Positions 1 to 10,455 of a stretch of DNA of 21,501 nt are shown piece by piece. A model generated the notes under the pieces. The model was not told where the DNA came from. It was given only the letters and a program-made list of their open reading frames with translations, and made no database searches. Position numbers and translations under genes: made by a program. This stretch comes from Acidihalobacter ferrooxydans (lineage in GTDB: Bacteria > Pseudomonadota > Gammaproteobacteria > DSM-5130 > Acidihalobacteraceae). The DNA lies in the NCBI RefSeq assembly GCF_001975725.1, contig NZ_CP019434.1:2712418-2733918 (forward strand), written 5' to 3'. Each line of letters starts with the position of its first letter. Positions within the stretch are counted from its first letter, which is position 1.

Positions 1-1282
1 TCCTCTACGGTAATGCGTGTGGCGTGCGCCACATGCTCATCGTGCCACCATGCCGTTCCCGGCCCCGAGGCGGGGCATCTCCTGGCGCACGATGTCCCAG
101 ATGAAGCCGGCCAGCTCACGGGCGATCGCCACGCACACCCGTTTGACGTTCTTGCCCGCCTGGGTCAGGGTGCGGTAGCGGCCACAGAGTCTTTTCTGTG
201 CCCGCCAGGCGATCGCCTTGGCCTGTTCCGGGGCCGCTTTGGCCTTGCGTTTGAGGTGCATCGTCTGACGCGCCGGGAACCGATAGCTCCAGGCACACTC
301 CACCAGCATGCGGCGCGCATGGGCATTGCCGGTCAGGGTGATCGCGCCCTGGCGTCGTCGGCCGCCGCTGCTGTGTTCACTCGGCACCCGCCCCAGGTAG
401 GCCATGAGCTGTTTGGGTGACTCGAAGCGGCTGATATCGCCAAGCTCCGCCAACAGCACGATGGCGGCCAGTGTGTCGATGCCGCGCAAGGCCACCAGCG
501 CATCCACCACCGGGGCCAATGACCAGTTCGGCAGGGCCTGCATCAATTGGGCGGTAAGATCGGCCACGCGTCGAGAGGCGGCCTTGACCGCGTCGATGTA
601 CTCCTGCAGCACCACCTGCAGCCAGGGTTGTTCGAAGCGGATCGATGCCATCCAGTTGAAGTGGGTCGCCGTCCAGCGTGTCTTGCCCGTGGGCCAGTGA
701 TGCCCGTGGCGCAACAAAAATCCGTTGAGCTGCTGGCGTGCCTTGCGCTCCTGACCCTTCATGTCGTCCCGCGCCCGCGTCAGATCCCGCATCGCTTCCT
801 GCTCGGCGTCCGGCACCCACACCGGCGTCAGTTCGCCAGCCCGTAACAGCCGCGCCAGCTTCAGCGCATCACGCCGGTCGGTCTTGACCCGCTCGCCCGC
901 CTTCTTCGGAATCAGCGAAGGCGCCACCACCTGACAGTCATGCCCCGCCGCGACCAGCCGCCGATACAATCCGTAACCACACGGGCCGGCCTCATAGCAA
1001 AACTGCAACAAGGCGCCCTCGAACTCGGCGCTCAGGCGATCCAGCCATCGGCTCACCTTCTTCGGCTCATGGGCGATCTCTCCCCGGTACAGGGGTTCAT
1101 CGCGCCCTGGCAGGGCGACCGCCACCGCAATCGTGTCCTTGTGAACGTCCAGTCCGACGTAGGCGGCATATCGCTCCGTCACGATCGGTGCCGAAGTCTG
1201 GTTTGCGCTATCCTCTTTCATGACCTGTCCTCCTCAATGTGGCTCTGTGGCGGGAGTGATTTCCCAACCCACCCCAACATAA
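1..1282 (-). mobile_element. IS110-family insertion sequence, partial (left end off-window; right boundary approximate)
   Basis: Contains the DEDD-type transposase ORF 37..1221. Only 36 bp follow its stop before the window edge. Between the start codon (1221) and the truncated integrase reading frame (open from 1283) there are about 60 bp, with a GAGGAGG Shine-Dalgarno at roughly 1229-1236. IS110-family elements lack classical terminal IRs, so the exact end cannot be read off the sequence. Confidence 0.65.
37..1221 (-). CDS. IS110-family (DEDD) transposase, 394 aa
   Basis: N-terminal YVGLDVHKDT, CYEAGPCGYGL and VKTDRRDA motifs typical of the DEDD_Tnp_IS110 domain. C-terminal LGRVPSEHSSGGRRRQGAITLTGNAHARRMLVECAW matches the Transposase_20 domain. 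Strong SD upstream. Confidence 0.93.
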   Translation of the reverse strand: MKEDSANQTSAPIVTERYAAYVGLDVHKDTIAVAVALPGRDEPLYRGEIAHEPKKVSRWLDRLSAEFEGALLQFCYEAGPCGYGLYRRLVAAGHDCQVVAPSLIPKKAGERVKTDRRDALKLARLLRAGELTPVWVPDAEQEAMRDLTRARDDMKGQERKARQQLNGFLLRHGHHWPTGKTRWTATHFNWMASIRFEQPWLQVVLQEYIDAVKAASRRVADLTAQLMQALPNWSLAPVVDALVALRGIDTLAAIVLLAELGDISRFESPKQLMAYLGRVPSEHSSGGRRRQGAITLTGNAHARRMLVECAWSYRFPARQTMHLKRKAKAAPEQAKAIAWRAQKRLCGRYRTLTQAGKNVKRVCVAIARELAGFIWDIVRQEMPRLGAGNGMVAR

Positions 1283-1540
1283 CCCACGTGCGTTGAGGTT
1301 GGGCAGGTCAAAACATCATGTCTAGCGAAACTCCATACAAGCGCTTGGAAAAGGGCGTGGGAAAAAGCGGGATTACCGTCTACAGACAGAGGAACTCGAA
1401 AAGGCGTACACAACCGGCGTCATACTTGCGGTCGCACACTGAGAGCGGCCGGGGTATCGCAGGAAACTCGAGAAGCGCTAATCGGCCACGCCAATGGGGA
1501 CATCACGACGCACTACTCGGCGGCAGAACTGTGGGAACTA
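1283..1540 (+). pseudogene. Tyrosine recombinase (phage/island integrase) remnant, part 1 (catalytic-domain fragment, N-terminus missing)
   Basis: Frame with codon starts congruent to 2 mod 3 reads ...AKLHTSAWKRAWEKAGLPSTDRGTRKGVHNRRHTCGRTLRAAGVSQETREALIGHANGDITTHYSAAELWEL. This includes an HxxR box, an LxGH box and the catalytic Tyr context (THY). No start codon. An in-frame TAA at 1280-1282 and the IS110 element lie immediately upstream. The frame is interrupted at the TA (1539-1540) by the IS630 insertion. Confidence 0.75.
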
Positions 1541-2623
1541 GTGTAGTGCGTCATTCTGTTTGGAACTTAAGCGCCGATTGGCGCGGACTACCTTCTGGAG
1601 GATGTCATTGGCACTGGCCGTCCAGATGAATGATTTCGGTTGCCGATTATGCTCAGCGATAGAGTCCTCAATCGCGTGGATCAGTTCCGGTACGCTGGTG
1701 AACACGCCACGGCGCAGTTGCTGGGTGGTGATGTCACGAAAGAAGCGCTCCACCCTGTTGAGCCAGGACGCGGAGGTGGGCGTGAAGTGGATGTGAAAGC
1801 GTGGGTGCTTGGCCAGCCACTGTTTCACTTTCGGATGCTTGTGCGTAGCGTAGTTGTCGCAGATCAGATGCAGCGCCTTGTCCCGGGGCGTCTCGCGCTC
1901 GATCTGGCGCAGGAACTTCAGCCATTCGACATGCTGATGACGCGCCTGACATTGACCGATCACGGTACCATCGAGCACGTTGAGCGCCGCGAACAAGGTG
2001 GTGGTGCCATGACGCTTGTAGTCATGGGTCATCGTCGCGGCACGGCCTTTCTTCAAAGGCAGGCCCGGTTGGGTACGGTCCAAGGCCTGGACCTGACTTT
2101 TCTCGTCACAGCAGAGCACCAGCGCGTGCGCGGGCGGATTCAGATACAGCCCGACCACGTCTTCAAGCTTTTCGATAAACCGCGGGTCGCGCGAGACCTT
2201 GAACGTCTCGATGCGGTGCGGCTTGAGGCCATGCGCTTGCCACACCCGACGAATGCTCGCCTCGCTGACACCGGTGCGCACCGCCATGGACCGCGTGCTC
2301 CAATGGGTGGCGTTAGCAGGCCGGGTCTGCGTGGTCAGGCGCACGATCTCGGCCTCGTCCACCGTCTTGGGACGCCCGCCCCGCGGGCGATCCCGATGAA
2401 TGGCCGCCAGTGCTCCTTGCGCATAACGCCTGCGCCAGCGACCCACTTGCACGCGTCCGATATTCAACGCCTGAGCAATCTCATGGTTGTTCATCCCGCG
2501 CGCGGCAAGCAACACAATCGCCGCACGACGCGCTTCGCGCACACTGGCCGTATTGGAATTCTTCAACTGTCTCAGCCGCTTCTCTTCGTCGGCGTCCAAC
2601 TCAATCACCGGGGCTACTCTCAT
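1538..2623 (-). CDS. IS630-family DDE transposase, 361 aa
   Basis: N-terminal HTH (AAIVLLAARGMNNHEIAQALNIGRVQVGRWRRRY). DDE_3 region with LICDNYATHK and FTPTSASWLNRVERFF. The stop codon TAG (complement of 1538-1540) lies outside the IR, using the duplicated TA plus one flanking base. Confidence 0.93.
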   Translation of the reverse strand: MRVAPVIELDADEEKRLRQLKNSNTASVREARRAAIVLLAARGMNNHEIAQALNIGRVQVGRWRRRYAQGALAAIHRDRPRGGRPKTVDEAEIVRLTTQTRPANATHWSTRSMAVRTGVSEASIRRVWQAHGLKPHRIETFKVSRDPRFIEKLEDVVGLYLNPPAHALVLCCDEKSQVQALDRTQPGLPLKKGRAATMTHDYKRHGTTTLFAALNVLDGTVIGQCQARHQHVEWLKFLRQIERETPRDKALHLICDNYATHKHPKVKQWLAKHPRFHIHFTPTSASWLNRVERFFRDITTQQLRRGVFTSVPELIHAIEDSIAEHNRQPKSFIWTASANDILQKVVRANRRLSSKQNDALH

Positions 2624-2673
2624 AGCGCTTGTCCTGCATCTGCCTGTTCCCGTAGTCAGACATCAGGCAGGAT

Positions 2674-4006
2674 CACTAGTGTCCGGAAAAATCTGGCATG
2701 ACCCTCTATAATCAACTGTTTTTACGAAAATAACATGCCTTTTTCGCCTGTCACCGACTTGAACTGGCCTCCGGGCCAGGCGCACGCTTCAACGCGGTAT
2801 TCCGGGTTGGAGCGACCAAGTCATGTACACAGGAAAACTCGTGTTCGCACAGGCGATAGATCACCTGCCTTTGCACACACTGCGGCGCTGCATTCAGCTC
2901 TACAACGGCAACCGGCACGTCAAACGCTTCAGCTGTCAGGATCAGTACCGATGCATGGCCTTTGCACAGCTCACCTACCGGGAGAGCCTGCGCGACATCG
3001 AGGCCTGCCTCAACGCCCAGAGCAACAAGCTCTACCACATGGGCATCCGTTCTCGCATCGCGCGCAGCACACTGGCCGAGGCCAACGAGAAGCGCGACTG
3101 GCGCATCTACGCCGACTTTGCTCAGTCACTGATCCAGATCGCCCGGCGACTGTATGCCGACGAGGACCTTGGCCTCGAACTCGACAACACGGTCTACGCG
3201 CTCGATGCCTCCACCATCGATCTCTGCTTGTCCGTATTCCCCTGGGCGCATTTCCGGCAAACCAAGGCCGCCGTCAAGCTACACACGTTGCTCGATCTAC
3301 GCGGCAATATCCCTTCGTTCATCCATATCTCCGACGGCAAGCTTCACGATGTGAATGTGCTCGACCTTCTACTGCCAGAGCCCGGCGCCTTCTACATCGT
3401 GGATCGTGGCTATACGGACTTCGAGCGTCTGCATCAGCTTCACCAGGCGTTGGCATTTTTCGTCATTCGCGCCAAGTCCAACCTGCAGTTCCGGCGGGTG
3501 TACTCCCGCCCCGTGGACAAACAGACCGGTCTGCGTTGCGATCAAACCATCGCGCTCACTGGTGTCCGCAGCGCCCGGCACTACCCGGACCCACTTCGTC
3601 GCATCAAGTACTACGACGCAGAGACCGACAAACGGCTGGTCTTTCTGACCAACAACTTCACGATCCCGGCGATCACCGTAACGGATCTCTACCGGTACCG
3701 CTGGCAGGTGGAGCTGTTCTTCAAATGGATCAAGCAGCACCTGCGCATCAAGTCGTTCTTCGGCACGTCAGAAAATGCGGTCAAGACGCAAGTCTGGATC
3801 GCCGTCTCCGTCTATGTCCTGGTCGCCATCATCAAGAAGCGACTCGATATCCCGGCCAGTCTCTACTCGATCCTACAGATTTTGAGCCTGACCATTTTCG
3901 AAACAATGCCCCTGAATCAATTGCTTACAGAGGATGACCCCGATATGACTCATTCCGACCCCCATAACCAGTTGAATTTATTTGAATAATATTCCGGACA
4001 CGAGTG
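2674..4006 (+). mobile_element. IS4-family insertion sequence (1333 bp) nested inside the IS630 element
   Basis: Imperfect terminal IRs: CACTAGTGTCCGGAA (2674-2688) versus the reverse complement of TTCCGGACACGAGTG (3992-4006), 14/15 matches. Flanked by a perfect 9-bp direct repeat AGGCAGGAT at 2665-2673 and 4007-4015 (target-site duplication). Confidence 0.87.
2823..3989 (+). CDS. IS4-family DDE transposase, 388 aa
   Basis: Carries the Y(2)R(3)E(6)K signature directly in YRYRWQVELFFKWIK. Has a DDE_Tnp_1-like core (IVDRGY...) and an N-terminal region (MYTGKLVFAQAIDHLPLHTLRRCI...) resembling the DUF4372 domain seen in this transposase group. Confidence 0.92.
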   Translation: MYTGKLVFAQAIDHLPLHTLRRCIQLYNGNRHVKRFSCQDQYRCMAFAQLTYRESLRDIEACLNAQSNKLYHMGIRSRIARSTLAEANEKRDWRIYADFAQSLIQIARRLYADEDLGLELDNTVYALDASTIDLCLSVFPWAHFRQTKAAVKLHTLLDLRGNIPSFIHISDGKLHDVNVLDLLLPEPGAFYIVDRGYTDFERLHQLHQALAFFVIRAKSNLQFRRVYSRPVDKQTGLRCDQTIALTGVRSARHYPDPLRRIKYYDAETDKRLVFLTNNFTIPAITVTDLYRYRWQVELFFKWIKQHLRIKSFFGTSENAVKTQVWIAVSVYVLVAIIKKRLDIPASLYSILQILSLTIFETMPLNQLLTEDDPDMTHSDPHNQLNLFE

Positions 4007-4048
4007 AGGCAGGATATTAAGTTCTTTTAATTATGACGCACTACACTA

Positions 4049-4183
4049 GCGCAAGCAGCCGAAGTGATCACCGGCCGTAGCATCAAGCAGACACCAGCGC
4101 TGCATGTGATCGCCCGCACAGCCGCTGTCGGCGTGTCGGAAAACAAAAAGGGGCTAACGGCAAAAAGCTCGCTAACCCCTTGA
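4049..4183 (+). pseudogene. Tyrosine recombinase remnant, part 2 (C-terminal 44 codons plus stop)
   Basis: Continues the frame of 1283..1540 exactly once the IS630 element and one TA copy are removed (...AAELWEL|AQAAEVITGRSIKQTPALHVIARTAAVGVSENKKGLTAKSSLTP*). The TGA stop at 4181-4183 lies 6 bp from the tRNA-Arg 3' fragment. Confidence 0.7.
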
Positions 4184-4189
4184 TTTTAA

Positions 4190-4234
4190 TGGCGCGCCCG
4201 GAAGGATTCGAACCTCCGACCACCTGGTTCGTAG
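4190..4234 (-). repeat. att site (distal copy): 45-bp fragment identical to the 3' portion of tRNA-Arg
   Basis: TGGCGCGCCCGGAAGGATTCGAACCTCCGACCACCTGGTTCGTAG is identical at 4190-4234 and 10379-10423. It covers the tRNA from the anticodon loop to CCA. Sequence diverges immediately after position 4234 versus 10423. Imperfect similarity continues about 14 bp on the other side (4176-4189 versus 10365-10378). Confidence 0.92.
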
Positions 4235-4352
4235 TTAGGTGAATCTAGGTTTCATGCGGGTTCAGCCCGAATCACGTAAAACGCTAACCGACTGATTTCC
4301 TTGCATTCGCGTATTCAACCCGTGTCAGCTAGAATTAGCCAAGCGCCGCAAA

Positions 4353-4384
4353 ATTGGCAACAAATTGGCAACAGATTGGCAACA
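4353..4384 (+). promoter_or_regulatory. Three 11-bp-phased copies of ATTGGCAACA upstream of int (candidate integrase arm-type sites)
   Basis: ATTGGCAACA at 4353-4362, 4364-4373 and 4375-4384. Two more copies in the same orientation sit at the other island end (10300-10309, 10311-10320). They lie between the att core and the int start codon. Confidence 0.5.
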
Positions 4385-4414
4385 GCCGCCGACCACCTGA
4401 CCCGGAACGCAAAC

Positions 4415-5692
4415 ATGGCAACTGAGAAGCGCCTTTCCCCACTGGCAATCAAGAACGCGAAAGCCACCACCCGCGACCGTTGGCTAAACGATGGTGGAGG
4501 TTTGTTTCTGCATGTCCGGCCATCCGGTAGCAAGGCGTGGCGGCTGCGATACACCATCAACGGCAAGCGGCGAGTCAAGAACCTGGGCGATGCCGGCGTA
4601 GTGAGTGCCCGCGAAGCACGCGACGCCGCGCATAAGGCACGCAAGCTGGTTGAGCAAGGGCTAGATCCGATTGAAGAGGAGGCCGCCGCACGCGAGGCCG
4701 AACGCAAAGAACTGGAACAGCGGCGCACCTTCGAGGATGCCTTGAACCGATGGGCCGAACTTGAGCTATCGAGCCGCAAGGACGGGGGCGCGGAAAGCAT
4801 ACGTGCCCTGCGTAAGGACGTGCTGCCGGTCTTGGGTGGCCGTCTGCTGGACGAAATCACACGCGGCGATGTGCTGGACGCGCTGGACGGGATCAAAGCC
4901 AGAGGCGCCGCCATTATGGCGAACCGCACCTTTGGCGACCTGCGGCAATTTTTTAACTGGTGCGCGTCACGCGAATGGGTGAGCGACAGTCCCTTGCGAG
5001 GCGTCAGAAAGGAAAACATCGGCGGACGGGAAAAAGAACGCGACCGGATACTGTCGGCGGGCGAATTGATAGAGCTACGCGACAAGCTACCGGGCGCGAA
5101 CCTTGAACCGCAAACCGTGGCGGCGGTCTGGATAATGCTTGCGACACTTTGCCGGGTGGGCGAGTTAATTCAAGCCAGATGGGAAGATATCGACCTTGAA
5201 AGCGGCACGTGGAGGATACCGGCGACCAACGCCAAGAACGCACGCGAGCATGTCGTTTTTCTGTCCGACCTTGCGATGCGGCAATTCGCCATTTTGCGCG
5301 AACGTACCGGGTGTGGCGAATGGGTAATGTTGTCGCCTTCAAAGGACGGTCACATAGGCATGAAAACCATCACGAAGCAGATACGCGACCGCATGCGCGA
5401 GGAACCCTTGAGCAACCGCACCAAGGCCGCAGGCGCATTAATCCTGACCGGCGGAGCATGGACACCGCACGACTTACGCCGAACAGGTGCAACGCTGATG
5501 GGTGAATTAGGCGTTTTGGGGGAAGTAATCGAGCGATGCTTAAACCACGTTGAGCCGAGCAAGATACGCCGCACGTATCAGCGGCACGAATACCGGGCAG
5601 AGAAGCGCGAAGCCTGGATGCGGTTGGGTGATTATTTGGATGACCTGCTGACTGGCCGTTCGCGTAAGGTTGTGAATATCCAGCGAGCATAA
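4415..5692 (+). CDS. int: Tyrosine-type site-specific integrase (P4-like, DUF4102 arm-binding N-terminus), 425 aa
   Basis: From the ATG at 4415: MATEKRLSPLAIKNAKATTRDRWLNDGGGLFLHVRPSGSKAWRLRYTINGKR (typical DUF4102 N-terminus). Catalytic boxes CRVGELIQARWEDIDL (R), TPHDLRRTGAT (HxxR) and LNHV...RRTYQRHEY (H...Y). The TTG at 4301 used by the ORF track adds 38 non-homologous residues that overlap the repeat array. Confidence 0.93.
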   Translation: MATEKRLSPLAIKNAKATTRDRWLNDGGGLFLHVRPSGSKAWRLRYTINGKRRVKNLGDAGVVSAREARDAAHKARKLVEQGLDPIEEEAAAREAERKELEQRRTFEDALNRWAELELSSRKDGGAESIRALRKDVLPVLGGRLLDEITRGDVLDALDGIKARGAAIMANRTFGDLRQFFNWCASREWVSDSPLRGVRKENIGGREKERDRILSAGELIELRDKLPGANLEPQTVAAVWIMLATLCRVGELIQARWEDIDLESGTWRIPATNAKNAREHVVFLSDLAMRQFAILRERTGCGEWVMLSPSKDGHIGMKTITKQIRDRMREEPLSNRTKAAGALILTGGAWTPHDLRRTGATLMGELGVLGEVIERCLNHVEPSKIRRTYQRHEYRAEKREAWMRLGDYLDDLLTGRSRKVVNIQRA

Positions 5693-5762
5693 TGAACGAA
5701 ACCCGGCGAGTGCGACCAACACGCGCCAGGCTTCTGACCAAACGTGATGGAGGGATCACGCG

Positions 5763-6449
5763 ATGGCTAGCGAAGATTGTACACAAATTGAATTCACGCA
5801 GGAGGGGGACTATTGGCTCGCGTTCGACGACGTGGGCAATTGTGGCGAAGGCAAGACCAAGGCCGAGGCACGCAGGGATTTACGCGGACAACAAGCCCGC
5901 AACGCCGCCGAGGTCGAGACGTTCATTGCAAGGCGCGAGCATGAAGCCGAGCAATCGAAGGCCAAGGCCGAGGCCGAACGAAAGCGGCAATTCGATGCCA
6001 ACCTGGGCCGTTACCTTCGCGCGATAGGCAAGCTTGAGCGCAGGATAAATCGCCGTGTGCAAAACGGCACCGCGCAACGTGAAAGCGACCGCCGAAAAAT
6101 AATTGCTGACGAGCTGGAAGGCTTCGCGTACGACTACCCACCCATCGAGACCACACCGCAAGCGCCCGGCTGGTTGGAGCAATCAACGGTGAAAATAGTC
6201 CCACCAACATCTACGCAGGTGGCGGACTGGCGAAAGAGTGTCAAGAAAGCGGCTAATGCACACCGGCAAGCTGCCAAAAACCGGGAAAAGCAACCTGCCG
6301 CCACCCGGGCCGCGATCAAAGCCAAGCACTTGGCGACCGAGCGCAAGAAAAAGGCAGTCAGGGCGCTGGCGGCGCAAGGGAAAACAAATCGACAAATTGC
6401 TTCCGTCCTGGGACTGAGACCCCGGCAGGTGCAACGGTTAAAAAAATAA
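5763..6449 (+). CDS. Hypothetical regulator: HicB/UPF0150-like N-terminal domain, charged coiled-coil linker, C-terminal HTH, 228 aa
   Basis: GGAGG SD 8 nt upstream. N-terminus IEFTQEGDYWLAFDDVGNCGEGKTKAEARRDL resembles the HicB-fold pattern (xDGxYxAxxPxLPGCxxxGxTxEEA). The middle is K/A/E/R-rich. The C-terminus AVRALAAQGKTNRQIASVLGLRPRQVQRLKK is a resolvase/HTH_23-like helix-turn-helix. Confidence 0.7.
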   Translation: MASEDCTQIEFTQEGDYWLAFDDVGNCGEGKTKAEARRDLRGQQARNAAEVETFIARREHEAEQSKAKAEAERKRQFDANLGRYLRAIGKLERRINRRVQNGTAQRESDRRKIIADELEGFAYDYPPIETTPQAPGWLEQSTVKIVPPTSTQVADWRKSVKKAANAHRQAAKNREKQPAATRAAIKAKHLATERKKKAVRALAAQGKTNRQIASVLGLRPRQVQRLKK

Positions 6450-6543
6450 TTCAGGGGGGTGACATTTCCCCGCTCTGCATAAAAAAGCCCGCGAATCGCC
6501 GTGTGCAATGCTTGACCCGTGTTCAATCAACAGGGGTCAAACA

Positions 6544-6747
6544 ATGCAAACTACGTTCGATCAGAACCGAATTATCCGCAACAAACAAGCCGCTGCCTTC
6601 CTGGGCGTTTCGGTTGCGACATATTGGCGACTTGTTCGTGCGGGCACGTTGCCGCAGCCGGTCAAAATCACGGCTCAAATAGGCGGCCAGCCGCTGCACG
6701 TGCTTGAGGAATTTCTCGAGCGCCTGAGCGCCGGGGGTGAGGTATGA
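6544..6747 (+). CDS. alpA: AlpA-family (HTH_17, excisionase-like) transcriptional regulator, 67 aa
   Basis: MQTTFDQNRIIRNKQAAAFLGVSVATYWRLVRAGTLPQPVKI... matches the AlpA/Xis-type winged-helix pattern (xxEVAxxLGVSxxTxYRLxxxGxFPxPxKxG). Position after int is typical. Its stop overlaps the next start (ATGA). ATG at 6544 is preferred over the ORF-track start at 6508. Confidence 0.85.
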   Translation: MQTTFDQNRIIRNKQAAAFLGVSVATYWRLVRAGTLPQPVKITAQIGGQPLHVLEEFLERLSAGGEV

Positions 6748-7181
6748 CCGCCCCGATTGACCGCGTGCTGCCATTGCTCGACGGCGTTCGTCAGACCGGC
6801 CCAAACCGATGGATTGCACGCTGCCCGGCCCATGCCGACAAAAGCCCGAGTCTGAGCATCCGCGAGGCCGAGGATGGGCGCCTTCTTGTGTACTGTTTTG
6901 GTGGTTGCGAGGCCGAAGATGTGACCGCCGCGCTTGGCTTGCGAATGGCCGACCTGTTCCCCGAACGCCCGCAGTACCGGCCCGGAGACAGGGCACAGGA
7001 GCCGCGCATTTCGCTGACCGACCTCGTTGATCTGCTGGCGCATGAGGCATTAATAGCCTACGTCGCAGCAGCTGACGCGGCGCACGGAAAGCCCATATCC
7101 AACGAGGACGCCGACCGCGCAGCCCTGGCCGCGCAACGCATCCGGACGGCTGTTGATTATGCGCGAGGGTACCCACGATGA
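6744..7181 (+). CDS. Stand-alone CHC2-type (DnaG-like) zinc-finger protein, 145 aa
   Basis: ARCPAHADKSPSLSIREAEDGRLLVYCFGGCEAEDVTAALGL matches the zf-CHC2 pattern CPFHxEKTPSFxV...CFGCG. No TOPRIM or primase catalytic region follows. ATGA overlaps at both ends indicate translational coupling. Confidence 0.8.
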   Translation: MTAPIDRVLPLLDGVRQTGPNRWIARCPAHADKSPSLSIREAEDGRLLVYCFGGCEAEDVTAALGLRMADLFPERPQYRPGDRAQEPRISLTDLVDLLAHEALIAYVAAADAAHGKPISNEDADRAALAAQRIRTAVDYARGYPR

Positions 7182-8899
7182 GCATACTTGGCCAACTTGA
7201 ACGCGCTGCGCAGGCACGCGCCAAAGCCTCAAGCGTTATCGACGCATTGGCCGACCGCGACGACCCGGAAACCGATGCAGCCGAAACGATGGACGCGTTC
7301 CAGGATTACGAGCGACTAGCGCAGGACGAACGGACGACCGAACCGCCCAAGCCCGAACAGGAACAGGGTGGCGCCGCAATCGAACGCCGAGCGCAGACCG
7401 TCGAACGGACCGGAAAGCCAAGCACGCCACCCGCGCCGCTGCCAACCGGGCTGCCACCTGTCGAGAAGTTCGATCTAGCGCTGTTGCCGGAAAGTCTAAG
7501 GGAAGCATGCGGTGACGCGGCCCATCGCATGCAATGCCCGCCCGATTTCGTCGCAGTTGGGTACATGGTGGCGGCGAGTTCCGCGGTTGGGCGCATCGTG
7601 GGCATCAAGCCAAAACGCCGTGACGACTGGCTTGTGGCGCCGAACCTTTGGGGCTGCGTCGTCGGCAGACCGTCCGCCCTGAAAACCCCCGCGCTTTCCG
7701 AAGCGCTGAGGCCGCTAAAGGCGCTTGAGGCCAAAGCGCGGGAGCAGTTCGCGAAGGAACGTCGGCAATTCGAGACCGCGCTTCAGTTGCACGAATTGAA
7801 AATGTCGAGTGATCGAAAAAAAGCAGCCGCCGCCATTGCCAAGGGTAACACCGCTGAGGCCGAAAACATTTTATTAGGGTCGGGAACAGAGCCTGAAGCG
7901 CCCACATGTCGGCGATTCATCGTCAACGACACCACGGTCGAAAAGTTGGGCGAATTGCTGGCCGAAAATCCGCGCGGGCTGCTGATGTTTAGAGACGAGC
8001 TAGCCGGGTGGTTTTCTTCACTCGACCGCGAATATGCGACGACTGACCGGGCTTTCTATCTTGAAGCGTTTAATGGAAGCGGCAGCTTCGTCTATGACAG
8101 AATCGGGCGCGGGACGGTTCACATTGAAGCGGCAACGGTGTCCTTACTGGGTGGAACGCAACCGGGACGACTGTCCGCGTATCTGCGCGGCGCGATTAAG
8201 GGCGGCGCAGGCGATGACGGGCTTGCGCAACGGCTTCAACTGTTGGTGTGGCCCGATCCGGTGAAATGGGAACACATCGATGAGTGGCCGAACGCTGACG
8301 CCAAGCGCGAGGTGGTTCGCGTGTTCGAGCACTTGGTTGATCTAAACCCGGAAGAGGCGGGGGCAACGAAAGTAGAGTACGACGCCATCCCTACACTGCG
8401 GTTCGACGACGGCGGCCAGGAGGCCTTTGACGGCTGGTACAACGCTCACATGAAGCGCCTGCGCGATGAGGACTTGCCGCCCTACCTTGAGAGTCACTTA
8501 GCAAAATACGCGAGCTTGATGCCTAGCTTGGCGCTGATCGACCACCTTTCATCGTTCCGAACTGGCCCCGTTACGGAGGAATCAGCGATTCGAGCCGCCG
8601 CGTGGTGTGAATACTTGGAGAGCCATGCCGTCCGGGCCTATTCGCCGATGGTGACGGGGGCCGTCACCGCTGCTGAGCGGCTGTTGAAAAAAATCAAAGC
8701 GGGCGAACTCGGCTCTGCATTTACGGCGCGGGATGTGTACCGGAAGTGCTGGTCAATGCTGACCGACATCGAAGATGTGCGCGAGGCCATCGATCTACTG
8801 GTGGATTATGGGTGGCTTGTCGCGCAATCCATCCCAACACGTGGGCGGTCGGCGACCATCTTCGAGGTGAGCCCTGCCGCATCCAAGGGGGGTGAATGA
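7178..8899 (+). CDS. DUF3987 (YfjI-like) P-loop protein, putative island replication helicase/initiator, 573 aa
   Basis: Central region LALLPESLREACGDAAHRMQCPPDFVAVGYMVAASSAVG..., WGCVVGRPSALKTPAL (Walker-A-like), RGLLMFRDELAGWF (Walker-B-like hhhhDE) and LGGTQPGRL is characteristic of DUF3987 proteins that follow primase domains in P4-like and CP4-57-like islands. Confidence 0.87.
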   Translation: MSILGQLERAAQARAKASSVIDALADRDDPETDAAETMDAFQDYERLAQDERTTEPPKPEQEQGGAAIERRAQTVERTGKPSTPPAPLPTGLPPVEKFDLALLPESLREACGDAAHRMQCPPDFVAVGYMVAASSAVGRIVGIKPKRRDDWLVAPNLWGCVVGRPSALKTPALSEALRPLKALEAKAREQFAKERRQFETALQLHELKMSSDRKKAAAAIAKGNTAEAENILLGSGTEPEAPTCRRFIVNDTTVEKLGELLAENPRGLLMFRDELAGWFSSLDREYATTDRAFYLEAFNGSGSFVYDRIGRGTVHIEAATVSLLGGTQPGRLSAYLRGAIKGGAGDDGLAQRLQLLVWPDPVKWEHIDEWPNADAKREVVRVFEHLVDLNPEEAGATKVEYDAIPTLRFDDGGQEAFDGWYNAHMKRLRDEDLPPYLESHLAKYASLMPSLALIDHLSSFRTGPVTEESAIRAAAWCEYLESHAVRAYSPMVTGAVTAAERLLKKIKAGELGSAFTARDVYRKCWSMLTDIEDVREAIDLLVDYGWLVAQSIPTRGRSATIFEVSPAASKGGE

Positions 8900-9405
8900 T
8901 GGGTCGGTACTTGGAAAAAATTCGCGAAAACGCCCAAAACCGCACTGACAAAACTGACAAAAGCCCCCTTGCCGCAACTTCTGTCAGTTCTGTCAGCGCC
9001 CAATCCGGCCATTTTCAGAAAAAAAACGAGGCCCCTCCGATTCATGGGATGACGGCGCACGAGGAAGCGAGCATCAGGGCCTGGTTGGCGTACATCGAGG
9101 AAACCGACCCTGCAATCGTCGCCGAGGTTCTGACCCGATGCCGCCGGATGCCTGACGCACGGGCCTACTTCCTGCGGCGGGCAAAAGAGGTTCCACAAAC
9201 AGAACCCGACCACGCGGTGACCTGCGGGGCCTGCCGACACTTCCAGCGGACCGAGCACCCGCACCTGGGGCATTGCGTCAGAGGCGAGCCGGAAGCAGCC
9301 GCTGGGCTTTGGGATAGTGACCGGCGCATGTGCCGTGTGTTCGAGCCTGTGGACCGCGACGAGAACCGACATTCTGGCAGGCAGGACCACCCCAAGCCCG
9401 CGTAA
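8896..9405 (+). CDS. Hypothetical protein, 169 aa, Cys-rich C-terminal half. Its 5' part encodes palindrome A
   Basis: The ATGA overlap with the upstream gene and the preceding GGGGGG run support the start at 8896/8899. The C-terminal VTCGACRHFQRTEHPHLGHCVRGEPEAAAGLWDSDRRMCRVFEP has a CxxC...C...C arrangement. An alternative internal start (MTAHEE..., about 9049) would place the palindrome in an intergenic gap. Confidence 0.62.
   Translation: MMGRYLEKIRENAQNRTDKTDKSPLAATSVSSVSAQSGHFQKKNEAPPIHGMTAHEEASIRAWLAYIEETDPAIVAEVLTRCRRMPDARAYFLRRAKEVPQTEPDHAVTCGACRHFQRTEHPHLGHCVRGEPEAAAGLWDSDRRMCRVFEPVDRDENRHSGRQDHPKPA
8944..8996. repeat. Palindrome A: ACTGACAAAACTGACAAAAG - 13-nt gap - its imperfect inverted copy CTTCTGTCAGTTCTGTCAG (four CTGACA units)
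   Basis: Left arm 8944-8963, right arm 8977-8996 (17/20 complementary). Homologous to palindrome B over about 90 bp. Translated in frame as TDKTDKS...TSVSSVS. Confidence 0.85.
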
Positions 9406-9469
9406 CGACGCAGAGCGGATGACGCATTACGCCAAACCGGCACGAACTTACCATTACGGAGACTTACCA

Positions 9470-9883
9470 ATGGCAAAAAAAATCGTTACCCTTCAAACAC
9501 ATATGCGCCGCAAGGAGGCCGTCAAGCTGCGGCTGGCGGGCCTGAGCTACCGGCAGATTGGTGATCGGCTCGGCATTAGTCACGTTGCCGCGCTGAACCA
9601 TGTTCGCGCCGTGCTGGATGAACTTCGGTCTGAGACCGCCGAGACCGCCGAGCAGATTCGCCGAATCGAGTTAGAGCGCTTGGACTGCGCGACCGCGTTA
9701 GCCATGCGCATGATCGACCGGGGCGAGCTGGCCGGTATTGATCGGCTCATCAAGATTCAGGAACGGCGTGCCCGGTTGCTTGGATTGGATGCTGCCGAGC
9801 GGGTGGACGTTTCGACGCAGGAGATTCCGACCGTCATCATTGCCGAGCCGGTGAGTCCGCGACTGCCTGATACGAAGCACTGA
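9470..9883 (+). CDS. Small HTH DNA-binding protein, small-terminase-like, 137 aa
   Basis: GGAG SD 9 nt upstream of the ATG at 9470. RRKEAVKLRLAGLSYRQIGDRLGISHVAALNHVRAVLDE is a sigma70-region-4/LuxR-type HTH. The following helical segment IELERLD...IDRLIKIQERRARLLGLDA recalls phage HTH proteins often annotated as small terminase subunits. The TerS assignment is from memory and untested. Confidence 0.72.
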   Translation: MAKKIVTLQTHMRRKEAVKLRLAGLSYRQIGDRLGISHVAALNHVRAVLDELRSETAETAEQIRRIELERLDCATALAMRMIDRGELAGIDRLIKIQERRARLLGLDAAERVDVSTQEIPTVIIAEPVSPRLPDTKH

Positions 9884-9948
9884 TTGCTTGAATCTGCACC
9901 GGTGCCGAGTAGCGGATAATCACCGAGGAGAATTTTCCGGGAATGGCC

Positions 9949-10020
9949 GGAATGGGAACTGACAGAACTGACAAAAGTTCGATCCGGGTAACTTCTGTCA
10001 GTTCTGTCAGTTCCCATTCC
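9949..10020. repeat. Palindrome B: 30-bp inverted repeat (29/30) with a 12-bp spacer, built on four CTGACA units
   Basis: GGAATGGGAACTGACAGAACTGACAAAAGT (9949-9978), spacer TCGATCCGGGTA, then ACTTCTGTCAGTTCTGTCAGTTCCCATTCC (9991-10020). Intergenic, 66 bp after the stop of 9470..9883. Confidence 0.9.
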
Positions 10021-10299
10021 AAGCATTTCCGTAAAACACGCCCCGGTAGCCATCCGGCACCATTCGCCGCCTAGACGCATTTTGCGTACACCGTACAAGG
10101 CGAATGCCCGCCAGCCGTACCCTAGCCTACCTTTCGCGTGATAGGCCCACAGACACCCCGCTACGGCGGTCTGGCGGCCTGTTTGTCGGCAACCGACAAG
10201 GATTGCTTGATAGCCATTCAGCGCCGCGCCTGACCGGGTGGGCGGACAGCGACCAAGGGCTTGCACGGGCTTAAACGAAACAGCCCTTGGTGGCGTTCA

Positions 10300-10320
10300 A
10301 TTGGCAACAAATTGGCAACA
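10300..10320 (+). promoter_or_regulatory. Two 11-bp-phased copies of ATTGGCAACA near the tRNA-proximal att site (candidate arm-type sites)
   Basis: ATTGGCAACA at 10300-10309 and 10311-10320, 58 bp from the att core at 10379. Same motif and orientation as the triplet at 4353-4384. Confidence 0.5.
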
Positions 10321-10378
10321 AATCCGCGTTTTCGTCTAGTGGGCGATGCCTCGCAATGCTCTAAGTCCTTGTTTTAAT

Positions 10379-10455
10379 TGGCGCGCCCGGAAGGATTCGA
10401 ACCTCCGACCACCTGGTTCGTAGCCAGGTACTCTATCCAACTGAGCTACGGGCGC
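10379..10455 (-). tRNA. tRNA-Arg (anticodon ACG), 77 nt, intact, CCA encoded
   Basis: Reverse complement GCGCCCGTAGCTCAGTTGGATAGAGTACCTGGCTACGAACCAGGTGGTCGGAGGTTCGAATCCTTCCGGGCGCGCCA folds as a cloverleaf. Anticodon stem CCTGG/CCAGG, loop CTACGAA. Confidence 0.95.

Follow-up and report, generated by a model that had tools for sequence, protein, structure and literature searches.

A stretch of 21,501 nt of the Acidihalobacter ferrooxydans genome (the window, i.e., the whole stretch of DNA that was analysed) contains, between positions 1326 and 4183, what is by its sequence a tyrosine recombinase pseudogene, reduced to the C-terminal catalytic part, broken by nested insertion sequences (IS) and facing a displaced fragment of tRNA-Arg(ACG). 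The account that we favor, at a probability of about 0.8, combines an island at tRNA-Arg, a later 6.1-kb element at the same target, IS insertions and an IS-associated loss of the island body. According to this account, an island would once have occupied tRNA-Arg(ACG) in its 3' half, its integrase gene pointing toward the tRNA, and the present stub would be the 3' end of that integrase gene. An unrelated 6.1-kb element with a P4-type integrase would have used the same 45-nt core for its own recombination and would now separate the old junction from the complete tRNA, so that the old integrase would be left facing only a 45-nt tRNA fragment. An IS630-family element would have entered codon 71 of what survives of the gene, as a simple insertion into a TA, and would later have been struck by an IS4-family element; with the border at 1325/1326, an IS110 copy would have taken the place of everything upstream of codon 276. 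A deletion associated with IS110 and/or a neighboring IS3-family element most likely removed the island body (~20 kb in relatives), and in the remaining scar four IS families occupy ~6.5 kb from nrdB to the tRNA fragment.

Extent and identity of the integrase stub

The stub consists of two forward-strand parts, positions 1326–1540 (2 nt of a broken codon and 71 codons, including the HxxR motif as HNRR, GH and the catalytic Tyr in THYSAAE) and 4049–4183 (44 codons and a TGA stop at 4181–4183), which amount to 115 codons plus the stop. The first part is 70% identical to residues 276–345, and the second 51% identical to residues 347–387, of a 389-aa integrase of Lentisalinibacter salinarum, and both together map unbroken onto residues 276–387 of this protein. 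A single tblastn alignment of the stub with a paralogue in the same genome crosses the IS630 junction (residues 12–105, 67% identity). The colinearity of the two halves with one integrase and the alignment across the junction indicate that the join is biologically real, confirming the proposal of an earlier sequence-only reading that removal of 1541–4048 restores the frame, without a shift, up to the TGA stop.

The Pfam profile Phage_integrase (PF00589) matches the stub alone with E = 9e-6 over profile positions 108–168 of 172, the score of 26 bits falling just below the cut-off of 27.1 bits; full-length relatives of the stub score 61–64 bits. The stub keeps the C-terminal catalytic residues HxxR, His/Trp and the Tyr nucleophile, its HNRR, GH and THY aligning with conserved columns of full-length relatives. 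The profile match and the 70% identity substantiate the earlier assignment of this frame, through 1540, to a tyrosine-recombinase catalytic fragment. A complete enzyme is not encoded: the first catalytic Arg and the Lys are absent, as are both the core-binding and the arm-binding domain, only residues ~276–389 of 389 being represented. With relatives of 389–414 aa as a yardstick, the missing N-terminal part comes to ~275 codons, within the range of 250–300 proposed before. An integrase gene split by an att site of its own, as in SSV1, was also considered and rejected, since the stop precedes the att core by 6 nt and the core is thus outside the frame.

Insertion sequences around and within the stub

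The left border of the stub is formed by an IS110-family element, of whose ~1666 nt the right-hand 1325 nt lie in the window (1–1325, reverse strand; transposase at 37–1221) and the other 340 nt in a masked stretch to its left. The element encodes a DEDD transposase (NCBIfam transpos_IS110, 269.8 bits vs. a cut-off of 140) and belongs to a set of five genomic copies with identical ends, the four others being 98.6–99.9% identical and ending at the equivalent of 1324–1325. All five copies agree up to ...GTCTAG and diverge beyond; since this divergence begins after 1325, positions 1283–1325 as well as the TAA at 1280–1282 belong to IS110, and the first base of the integrase remnant is 1326. The integrase fragment originally placed at 1283–1540 is, thus, retained for 1326–1540 and gives up its first 43 nt, and the in-frame TAA can no longer be regarded as the upstream end of the integrase frame.

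The two parts of the stub are separated by an IS630-family element (1541–4046, reverse strand; transposase at 1538–2623) with 1165 bp of its own DNA (1541–2674 and 4016–4046). Its assignment rests on a DDE_3 transposase (NCBIfam transpos_IS630, 269.1 bits vs. a cut-off of 100; Pfam DDE_3 and HTH domains), 14-nt perfect terminal inverted repeats (1541–1554 and 4033–4046) and a TA target duplication, read from the sequence at 1539–1540 (part of the integrase Leu codon CTA) and 4047–4048. The genome holds no second identical copy of this element, the nearest being ~79% identical. Nested within it is a 1332-bp IS4-family element (2675–4006, forward strand; transposase at 2823–3989), characterized by a DDE_Tnp_1 transposase (NCBIfam transpos_IS4_1, 279.4 bits vs. 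a cut-off of 115), 15-nt inverted repeats and a copy-specific 9-bp target duplication, AGGCAGGAT, at 2666–2674 and 4007–4015; the other genome copy, 99.2% identical, has its own, differing 9-bp duplication. The insert had been described as one IS630 element: the family and the TA duplication are upheld, and the notion of a single element is not, as the IS4 element is nested inside. At least two IS events do touch the old integrase gene, as had been proposed, namely the IS630 split and the IS110 end at 1325/1326.

The tRNA-Arg target and the DNA left of the window

The stop of the stub is indeed only 6 nt away from the displaced 3' part of tRNA-Arg(ACG) (4190–4234, reverse strand; 45 nt, anticodon loop to CCA), so that the remnant has the adjacency of an old-island integrase, next to the 3' end of its target tRNA or an att copy. 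The fragment represents the distal att copy of an intact 6.1-kb integrative element (4235–10378, forward strand), which lies between the stub and the complete tRNA, has 45-nt direct repeats at both ends and carries its own P4-type integrase (4415–5692; Pfam Arm-DNA-bind_3, Phage_int_M and Phage_integrase), unrelated to the stub. The complete tRNA-Arg(ACG) (10379–10455, reverse strand; ARAGORN) is followed by tRNA-Ser(GGA) and truB. Positions 4190–4234 are 100% identical to 10379–10423. A third 45-bp repeat had been anticipated further left by the sequence-only reading, which itself named its absence as one half of what would speak against it; neither the 40 kb to the left nor the rest of the readable genome contains such a copy.

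The same reading had placed the older island to the left of the window, which the readable DNA there does not bear out: the leftward order from the stub is IS110, masked stretch, IS3-family element, ~300 nt, core nrdB and nrdA, with nrdAB ending ~2.35 kb left of the window (93–95% identical in same-genus genomes), and no accessory cargo is present in readable DNA left of the stub. The 1843 bases directly left of the window (genome positions 2710575–2712417) are masked, which hides the sequence that separates IS3 from IS110, and all genome results refer to the readable genome. Besides the 340 bases of IS110, the masked stretch holds 1503 non-IS110 nt. The 1321-bp IS3-family element starts 210 nt before it, and its visible part matches a full copy elsewhere at 100% identity; if the copy here is complete, ~1110 of the masked bases would be IS3, leaving ~390 nt, and if it is truncated, up to ~1290 nt of non-IS DNA would be possible, enough for the missing 825 nt, in which case IS110 would have inserted simply and would not mark a deletion. 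A second copy of the tRNA 3' end, as a direct repeat that would mark the far border of the old island, is absent from the readable genome, ~390–1290 masked bases being unread. Given that this genome offers neither a third att copy nor cargo, we infer the island body from relatives only. A relocation of the N-terminal half by IS110 recombination was also considered and rejected, there being no N-terminal piece of the stub's integrase lineage elsewhere in the readable genome.

The masked stretch is central to an alternative that we consider unlikely, in which all IS are simple insertions, the integrase gene is interrupted with its N-terminal 275 codons lying left of IS110, and the old element would have been a lone integrase gene with a few hundred bases. 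IS110-family elements usually insert without flank deletion, and 1503 non-IS110 nt could accommodate such a piece; however, a complete IS3 would leave ~390 nt where at least 825 nt are needed, and the absence of any N-terminal piece from the readable genome also counts against this alternative.

Comparison with same-genus genomes yielded neither a stub orthologue nor a usable empty site among those searched; in two drafts the contigs break at this locus, and one of them has tRNA-Ser without tRNA-Arg. The match of a same-genus contig end to window positions −2062 to −1934 was considered as conserved core flank and rejected, the matching DNA being the IS3-family element, at which, as a repeat, that assembly is broken. 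At the family level, the neighbors of truB and nrdB are not kept, which leaves no empty-site comparison.

Relatives of the stub integrase and known systems

A family survey of the stub integrase, comprising 67 related loci, places this locus in a broader context. In 39 of the 67 loci the integrase is convergent with a complete tRNA, 11–224 nt away (overlapping in two), and the tRNA is Arg-ACG or Arg-TCG in 26 of these 39. In 13 related loci of other genomes, the integrase is followed only by a 42–49-nt tRNA-Arg fragment and then other DNA, the fragment ending in most cases on, or close to, the base at which it ends here. Three genomes have contigs with three or four att copies each, with island-sized spacings of 19–21 kb among them: the arrays of a Sedimenticolaceae MAG (G041; spacings of 19.3 and 71.4 kb) and of Lentisalinibacter salinarum scaffold2 (G043; 21.5 and 8.8 kb) end in a complete tRNA-Arg, and that of G042 (3.7, 19.3 and 5.2 kb) is on a contig with no complete tRNA-Arg. 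The 21.5-kb island of G043 carries type I restriction-modification, AbiEii and ThiF genes. Convergence of the integrase gene on the tRNA 3' end, claimed for the locus from the outset, is, thus, usual for the lineage, and the family loci, the fragment layout and the att arrays together establish tRNA-Arg as the recurrent hotspot that it had been suspected to be.

True C-terminal stubs number ~17 among the related loci. A shared break point, suggested by many matches that start at query residue 27, was rejected because full-length references show the breaks scattered over residues 157 to 349; this scatter fits random deletions sparing the tRNA-proximal end. This genome has two further members of the lineage, both truncated as well, and a second C-terminal stub in it adjoins tRNA-Ser(GCT). 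A frameshift or upstream extension of the latter, suggested by MAFFT, was rejected as the same nucleotides read in another frame.

An old island first and the 6.1-kb element second is a plausible order of events. The reverse, in which an already resident 6.1-kb element would have received the island at its distal 45-nt att copy and the island would have decayed later, would give the same layout, and we judge it improbable. The repeats of the stub integrase lineage are the same 42–49-nt segment, so the fragment alone could be a target, and the two 45-nt copies are identical and, therefore, carry no information on timing. Against this order, the stub's island is nearly erased and struck by two to four IS elements, whereas the 6.1-kb element is intact; the greater decay fits an older stub, but the degree of decay is not a clock. 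We give hardly any credence to the idea that the stub arrived already decayed, as a passenger flank of a composite segment (by recombination or cis-mobilisation) with no island of its lineage ever integrated here: transfer of entire composite tandems is documented (PMC5704250), neither a third att copy nor cargo is present and the other two lineage members are truncated too, but the stub is on the chromosomal side of the 6.1-kb element, beyond its repeats, and so would not travel when that element excises, and the near-identical copies of IS110, IS4 and IS3 elsewhere in the genome point to decay in place.

Overall, the favored account of an island overtaken by the 6.1-kb element and worn down by IS implies no new mechanism, and its main use is in annotation, providing exact borders for four IS elements and one integrase pseudogene. 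In addition, the core of tRNA-Arg(ACG) from the anticodon loop to CCA emerges as a common target of at least three integrase lineages across Gammaproteobacteria, and the tandem arrays of relatives supply intact examples of ~20-kb islands, one with defence genes. A functional reading, which we regard as very unlikely, would have the short 3' integrase stubs beside tRNA-Arg and tRNA-Lys in many Gammaproteobacteria persist for more than the sparing of the tRNA by deletions and be kept as a maintained "landing pad": the last ~100 codons and, by the tRNA end, a conserved GCTAACCCCTTGATT-type motif might work as a terminator or as flanking-arm DNA, and, if so, later elements (satellites, defence islands) might need or prefer stub DNA when using the same core.

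The stacking and decay of islands proposed here is an ordinary, already published and well-documented scenario. How integrative elements accumulate in tandem at a single att site and then decay is described by the ICESt1/CIME model of Pavlovic, Bellanger and Guedon, which is reviewed in PMC5704250 (section 2.3). The locus resembles this model in having two unrelated elements on one tRNA 3'-end target, the distal one decayed and an internal att between them. A CIME keeps both att sites, attL and attR, and loses its integrase, whereas this locus retains part of an integrase gene and a single, shared att copy, the att copy adjoining the stub and neither a distal copy nor cargo occurring in the readable genome. 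Further parallels are offered by tRNA-Arg islands with this integrase lineage in other Gammaproteobacteria, such as those of G043 and G041, in which the integrase (60–75% identical over the stub) converges on the 3' end of tRNA-Arg(ACG) with the same 45-nt core and, as part of a tandem array, likewise points at a displaced fragment. These islands have full-length integrases (389–405 aa), extend over 19–21 kb and show a third att copy, in contrast to the 115 codons left here. With regard to the position of the core within the tRNA, sublocation classes were reportedly set out by Williams in 2002. The locus is also comparable to lone C-terminal integrase remnants beside tRNAs (footprints of degraded islands), with which it shares a tRNA-proximal stub and a core running from the anticodon loop to CCA, and from which it differs in that the stub is also split by a nested IS pair and capped by an IS110 copy.

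An integrase remnant interrupted by insertion elements

The C-terminal remnant of a tyrosine-recombinase gene occupies two plus-strand pieces (1326-1540 and 4049-4183, with a TGA stop at 4181-4183) in the single 3.45-Mb contig of this genome (G+C 61.5%; window at G000:C1:2712418-2733918). It ends 6 nt before a 45-nt tRNA-Arg fragment (4190-4234), which is followed by a 6.1-kb element with its own P4-type integrase (4235-10378), by the minus-strand genes for tRNA-Arg(ACG) (10379-10455) and the adjoining tRNA-Ser(GGA), and further right by truB, rbfA, infB, nusA, rimP and then tRNA-Met (genes named by order and ORF sizes). Translation of 1283-1540 reproduced the peptide given in the sequence-only reading, and with 1541-4048 removed the frame indeed runs on to the TGA. 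The proposed recombinase identity also holds: the first piece matches Pfam Phage_integrase at profile positions 108-168 of 172 (E=9e-6, 26 bits, cut-off 27.1; 61-64 bits with PF00589 for the Lentisalinibacter salinarum integrase and two other full-length relatives). The two pieces correspond to residues 276-345 (70% identity) and 347-387 (51%) of the 389-aa L. salinarum protein, and an in-genome paralogue aligns unbroken across the join (stub residues 12-105, 67% identity, E=1.6e-33, tblastn), which shows the join to be no chance agreement of frames. Counted from 1326, the 115 codons contain the HxxR, GH and Tyr motifs and lack the first catalytic Arg and any N-terminal domain. Between integrase end and tRNA CCA end, a GCTAACCCCTTGATT-type DNA motif is conserved across the lineage (window 4165-4189 and loci L023, L025, L026, L030, L039 and L086); in L023 it is the 3' arm of a G+C-rich hairpin, and it may represent a terminator or part of attP.

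The insert between the pieces (1541-4046) has 14-nt perfect inverted repeats (1541-1554 and 4033-4046), has a TA on either side (1539-1540; 4047-4048), the IS630-family signature, and matches NCBIfam transpos_IS630 with 269 bits. The assignment of an IS630 element to a TA target stands, while its description as one element does not: nested within it at 2675-4006 lies an IS4-family element (1332 bp, 15-nt inverted repeats) with a 9-bp duplication (AGGCAGGAT, 2666-2674 and 4007-4015). The ends of this inner element are fixed by a second genome copy (99.2% identical) carrying a different 9-bp duplication. The nesting proves that IS630 preceded IS4, which is the sole step of chronology established by the sequence.

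At the left border, four other IS110-family copies (98.6-99.9% identical) match the window to 1324-1325 and diverge past ...GTCTAG. Since the shared sequence extends this far, 1283-1325 and the TAA at 1280-1282 are IS110 DNA, so that the 43 nt and the in-frame stop formerly attributed to the integrase have to be removed from it. A complete copy measures about 1666 nt, and the left 340 nt of the window copy lie beyond the window edge. In all four readable left flanks among the five copies (genome 27184, 264623, 512719 and 1208946, plus the window), GAAAYATYCGGGY or AAGGATTC immediately precedes the IS110 end, and such a common motif suggests guided target choice. On its right side, copy 2 is flanked by a dispersed repeat (about 160 nt) that occurs more than 35 times in the genome.

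The same integrase lineage at other tRNA genes

A scan of species-representative genomes yielded 67 related loci. The integrase frame converges on a complete tRNA in 39 of these (Arg-ACG 17, Arg-TCG 9, Lys-TTT 11, Val 1, Met 1), at a distance of 11-224 nt, with two overlapping the tRNA end. Another 13 loci with enough downstream sequence have only a 42-49-nt 3' fragment of tRNA-Arg followed by unrelated DNA, the boundary mostly coinciding with, or lying close to, that of the fragment in the window (...GGTTCGTAG), and 8 or 9 of these 13 encode full-length integrases. Geometrically, site-specific integration puts an integrase that lies on the CCA side of such a fragment outside the fragment-bounded element, an arrangement that marks a tandem array. 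Indeed, whole-record searches of three genomes confirmed several att copies in each: 913782 and 933141, with the complete tRNA at 1004598, in G041 (a Sedimenticolaceae MAG); 360046 and 381555, with the complete tRNA at 390415, in G043 (L. salinarum scaffold2); and four 45-47-nt fragments in one orientation within 28 kb (contig C7, 558895-587227; spacings 3.7, 19.3 and 5.2 kb) in G042, a multi-element stack on a single att site. Taking the distance to the att copy that comes next behind the integrase as island size gives 19.3, 19.3 and 21.5 kb. Genes on the G043 island specify a type I restriction-modification system, AbiEii, a ThiF-family protein and a second recombinase. The neighbour of this island on the tRNA-proximal side brings an integrase of its own (48% identity to the first), and a 30%-related recombinase adjoins a complete tRNA-Arg in G041 and G042 (in G042 on a contig separate from the fragments). 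Together with the P4-type integrase of the 6.1-kb element, these show the tRNA-Arg core to be common to several integrase lineages. The three-part layout seen at this locus recurs independently in L023 (MAG contig CAVQCX010000024.1, 2794-5532), with a lineage C-terminal stub, a 45-nt tRNA-Arg fragment and a P4-type integrase 36-44% identical to that of the window and broken into frames.

Comparison with full-length references identifies about 17 true C-terminal remnants among the 67 loci, with breaks at residues 157 to 349; some others are full-length pseudogenes with frameshifts. The genome studied here has two more decayed lineage members. One is a stub (about 95 codons) separated by 157 nt from tRNA-Ser(GCT) (718688-719101; L003/L011; 67% identical to the window stub) and surrounded by ordinary genes with no IS nearby. 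The copy at tRNA-Pro(GGG) (1975071-1976169; L015) lacks about 110-130 N-terminal residues and is joined at its 5' end to a solo end (59 nt) of the IS3-family element also present left of the window; its apparent start (..ENGAMNK) derives from that end, including the orfA start codon. The simplest reading is that island-erasing deletions are tolerated only when the tRNA is spared, so that what survives of the integrase is its tRNA-proximal 3' end. Two pieces of a distantly related integrase (N-terminal 2427173-2427445, C-terminal 2430754-2431512; 29-32% identity to the reference), about 3.3 kb apart, may be another insertion-split gene.

DNA to the left of the remnant

An older island extending left of the window, as had been proposed, is not visible there. 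The 1843 bases directly left of the window are masked as N, and the last 210 readable bases before them (genome 2710365-2710574, window -2053 to -1844) form one end of an IS3-family element. Copies elsewhere (2607993-2609313 and 1688291-1689609) measure 1321 bp and have both orfA and orfB and a typical rve C-terminus; one further copy, near 2078660-2081412, is interrupted. Farther left come about 300 nt that contain a small low-G+C ORF, next nrdB, which is core DNA given its 93-95% identity among same-genus genomes, nrdA, and genes for a TonB-dependent receptor, a cation-efflux protein, an HD-domain protein and a sucrose-phosphate synthase/phosphatase-type protein. No third att copy was found within 40 kb to the left (best match 13 nt), nor any further 45-nt core in the readable genome. 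A complete IS3 copy would end at -733, with IS110 starting near -340, and so leave about 390 unread non-IS bases, into which the missing ~825 nt of integrase cannot fit; with a truncated copy, up to ~1290 nt of other DNA could be present. Taking the IS3 copy as complete, non-IS DNA from nrdB to the tRNA fragment amounts to about 1 kb, in a gap holding four IS families (IS3, IS110, IS630 and IS4). In a same-genus draft genome (G001), contig C82 (L017) likewise ends downstream of nrdB inside a copy (88% identical) of this IS3-family element; the insertion may be older than the divergence of the species, or this position may be an insertion hotspot.

Proposed history and known systems

Overall, we assign a probability of roughly 0.8 to the following history as a whole. 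An island of this lineage would have entered tRNA-Arg(ACG), as its relatives do; the 6.1-kb element would then have recombined at the same core, pushing the old junction away; IS630 entered a TA of the old integrase, and IS4 afterwards IS630; and the remaining gene and the island body would have been lost, again by analogy with relatives. The integrase break coincides with the IS110 end, and the IS3 element is close by. The order of the two integrations may also have been the reverse: an "old" island entering at the distal att copy of a 6.1-kb element already in place would yield an identical map. The IS events may have come before or after the arrival of the 6.1-kb element.

Section 2.3 of PMC5704250 describes both tandems of elements with distantly related integrases of shared specificity and a three-step scenario in which an element integrates, decays and is then joined at its att site by an incoming element through accretion. 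With part of its integrase still present and a distal att copy lacking, the present locus is not a strict CIME; it is an ordinary case of the published integration-decay-accretion scenario.
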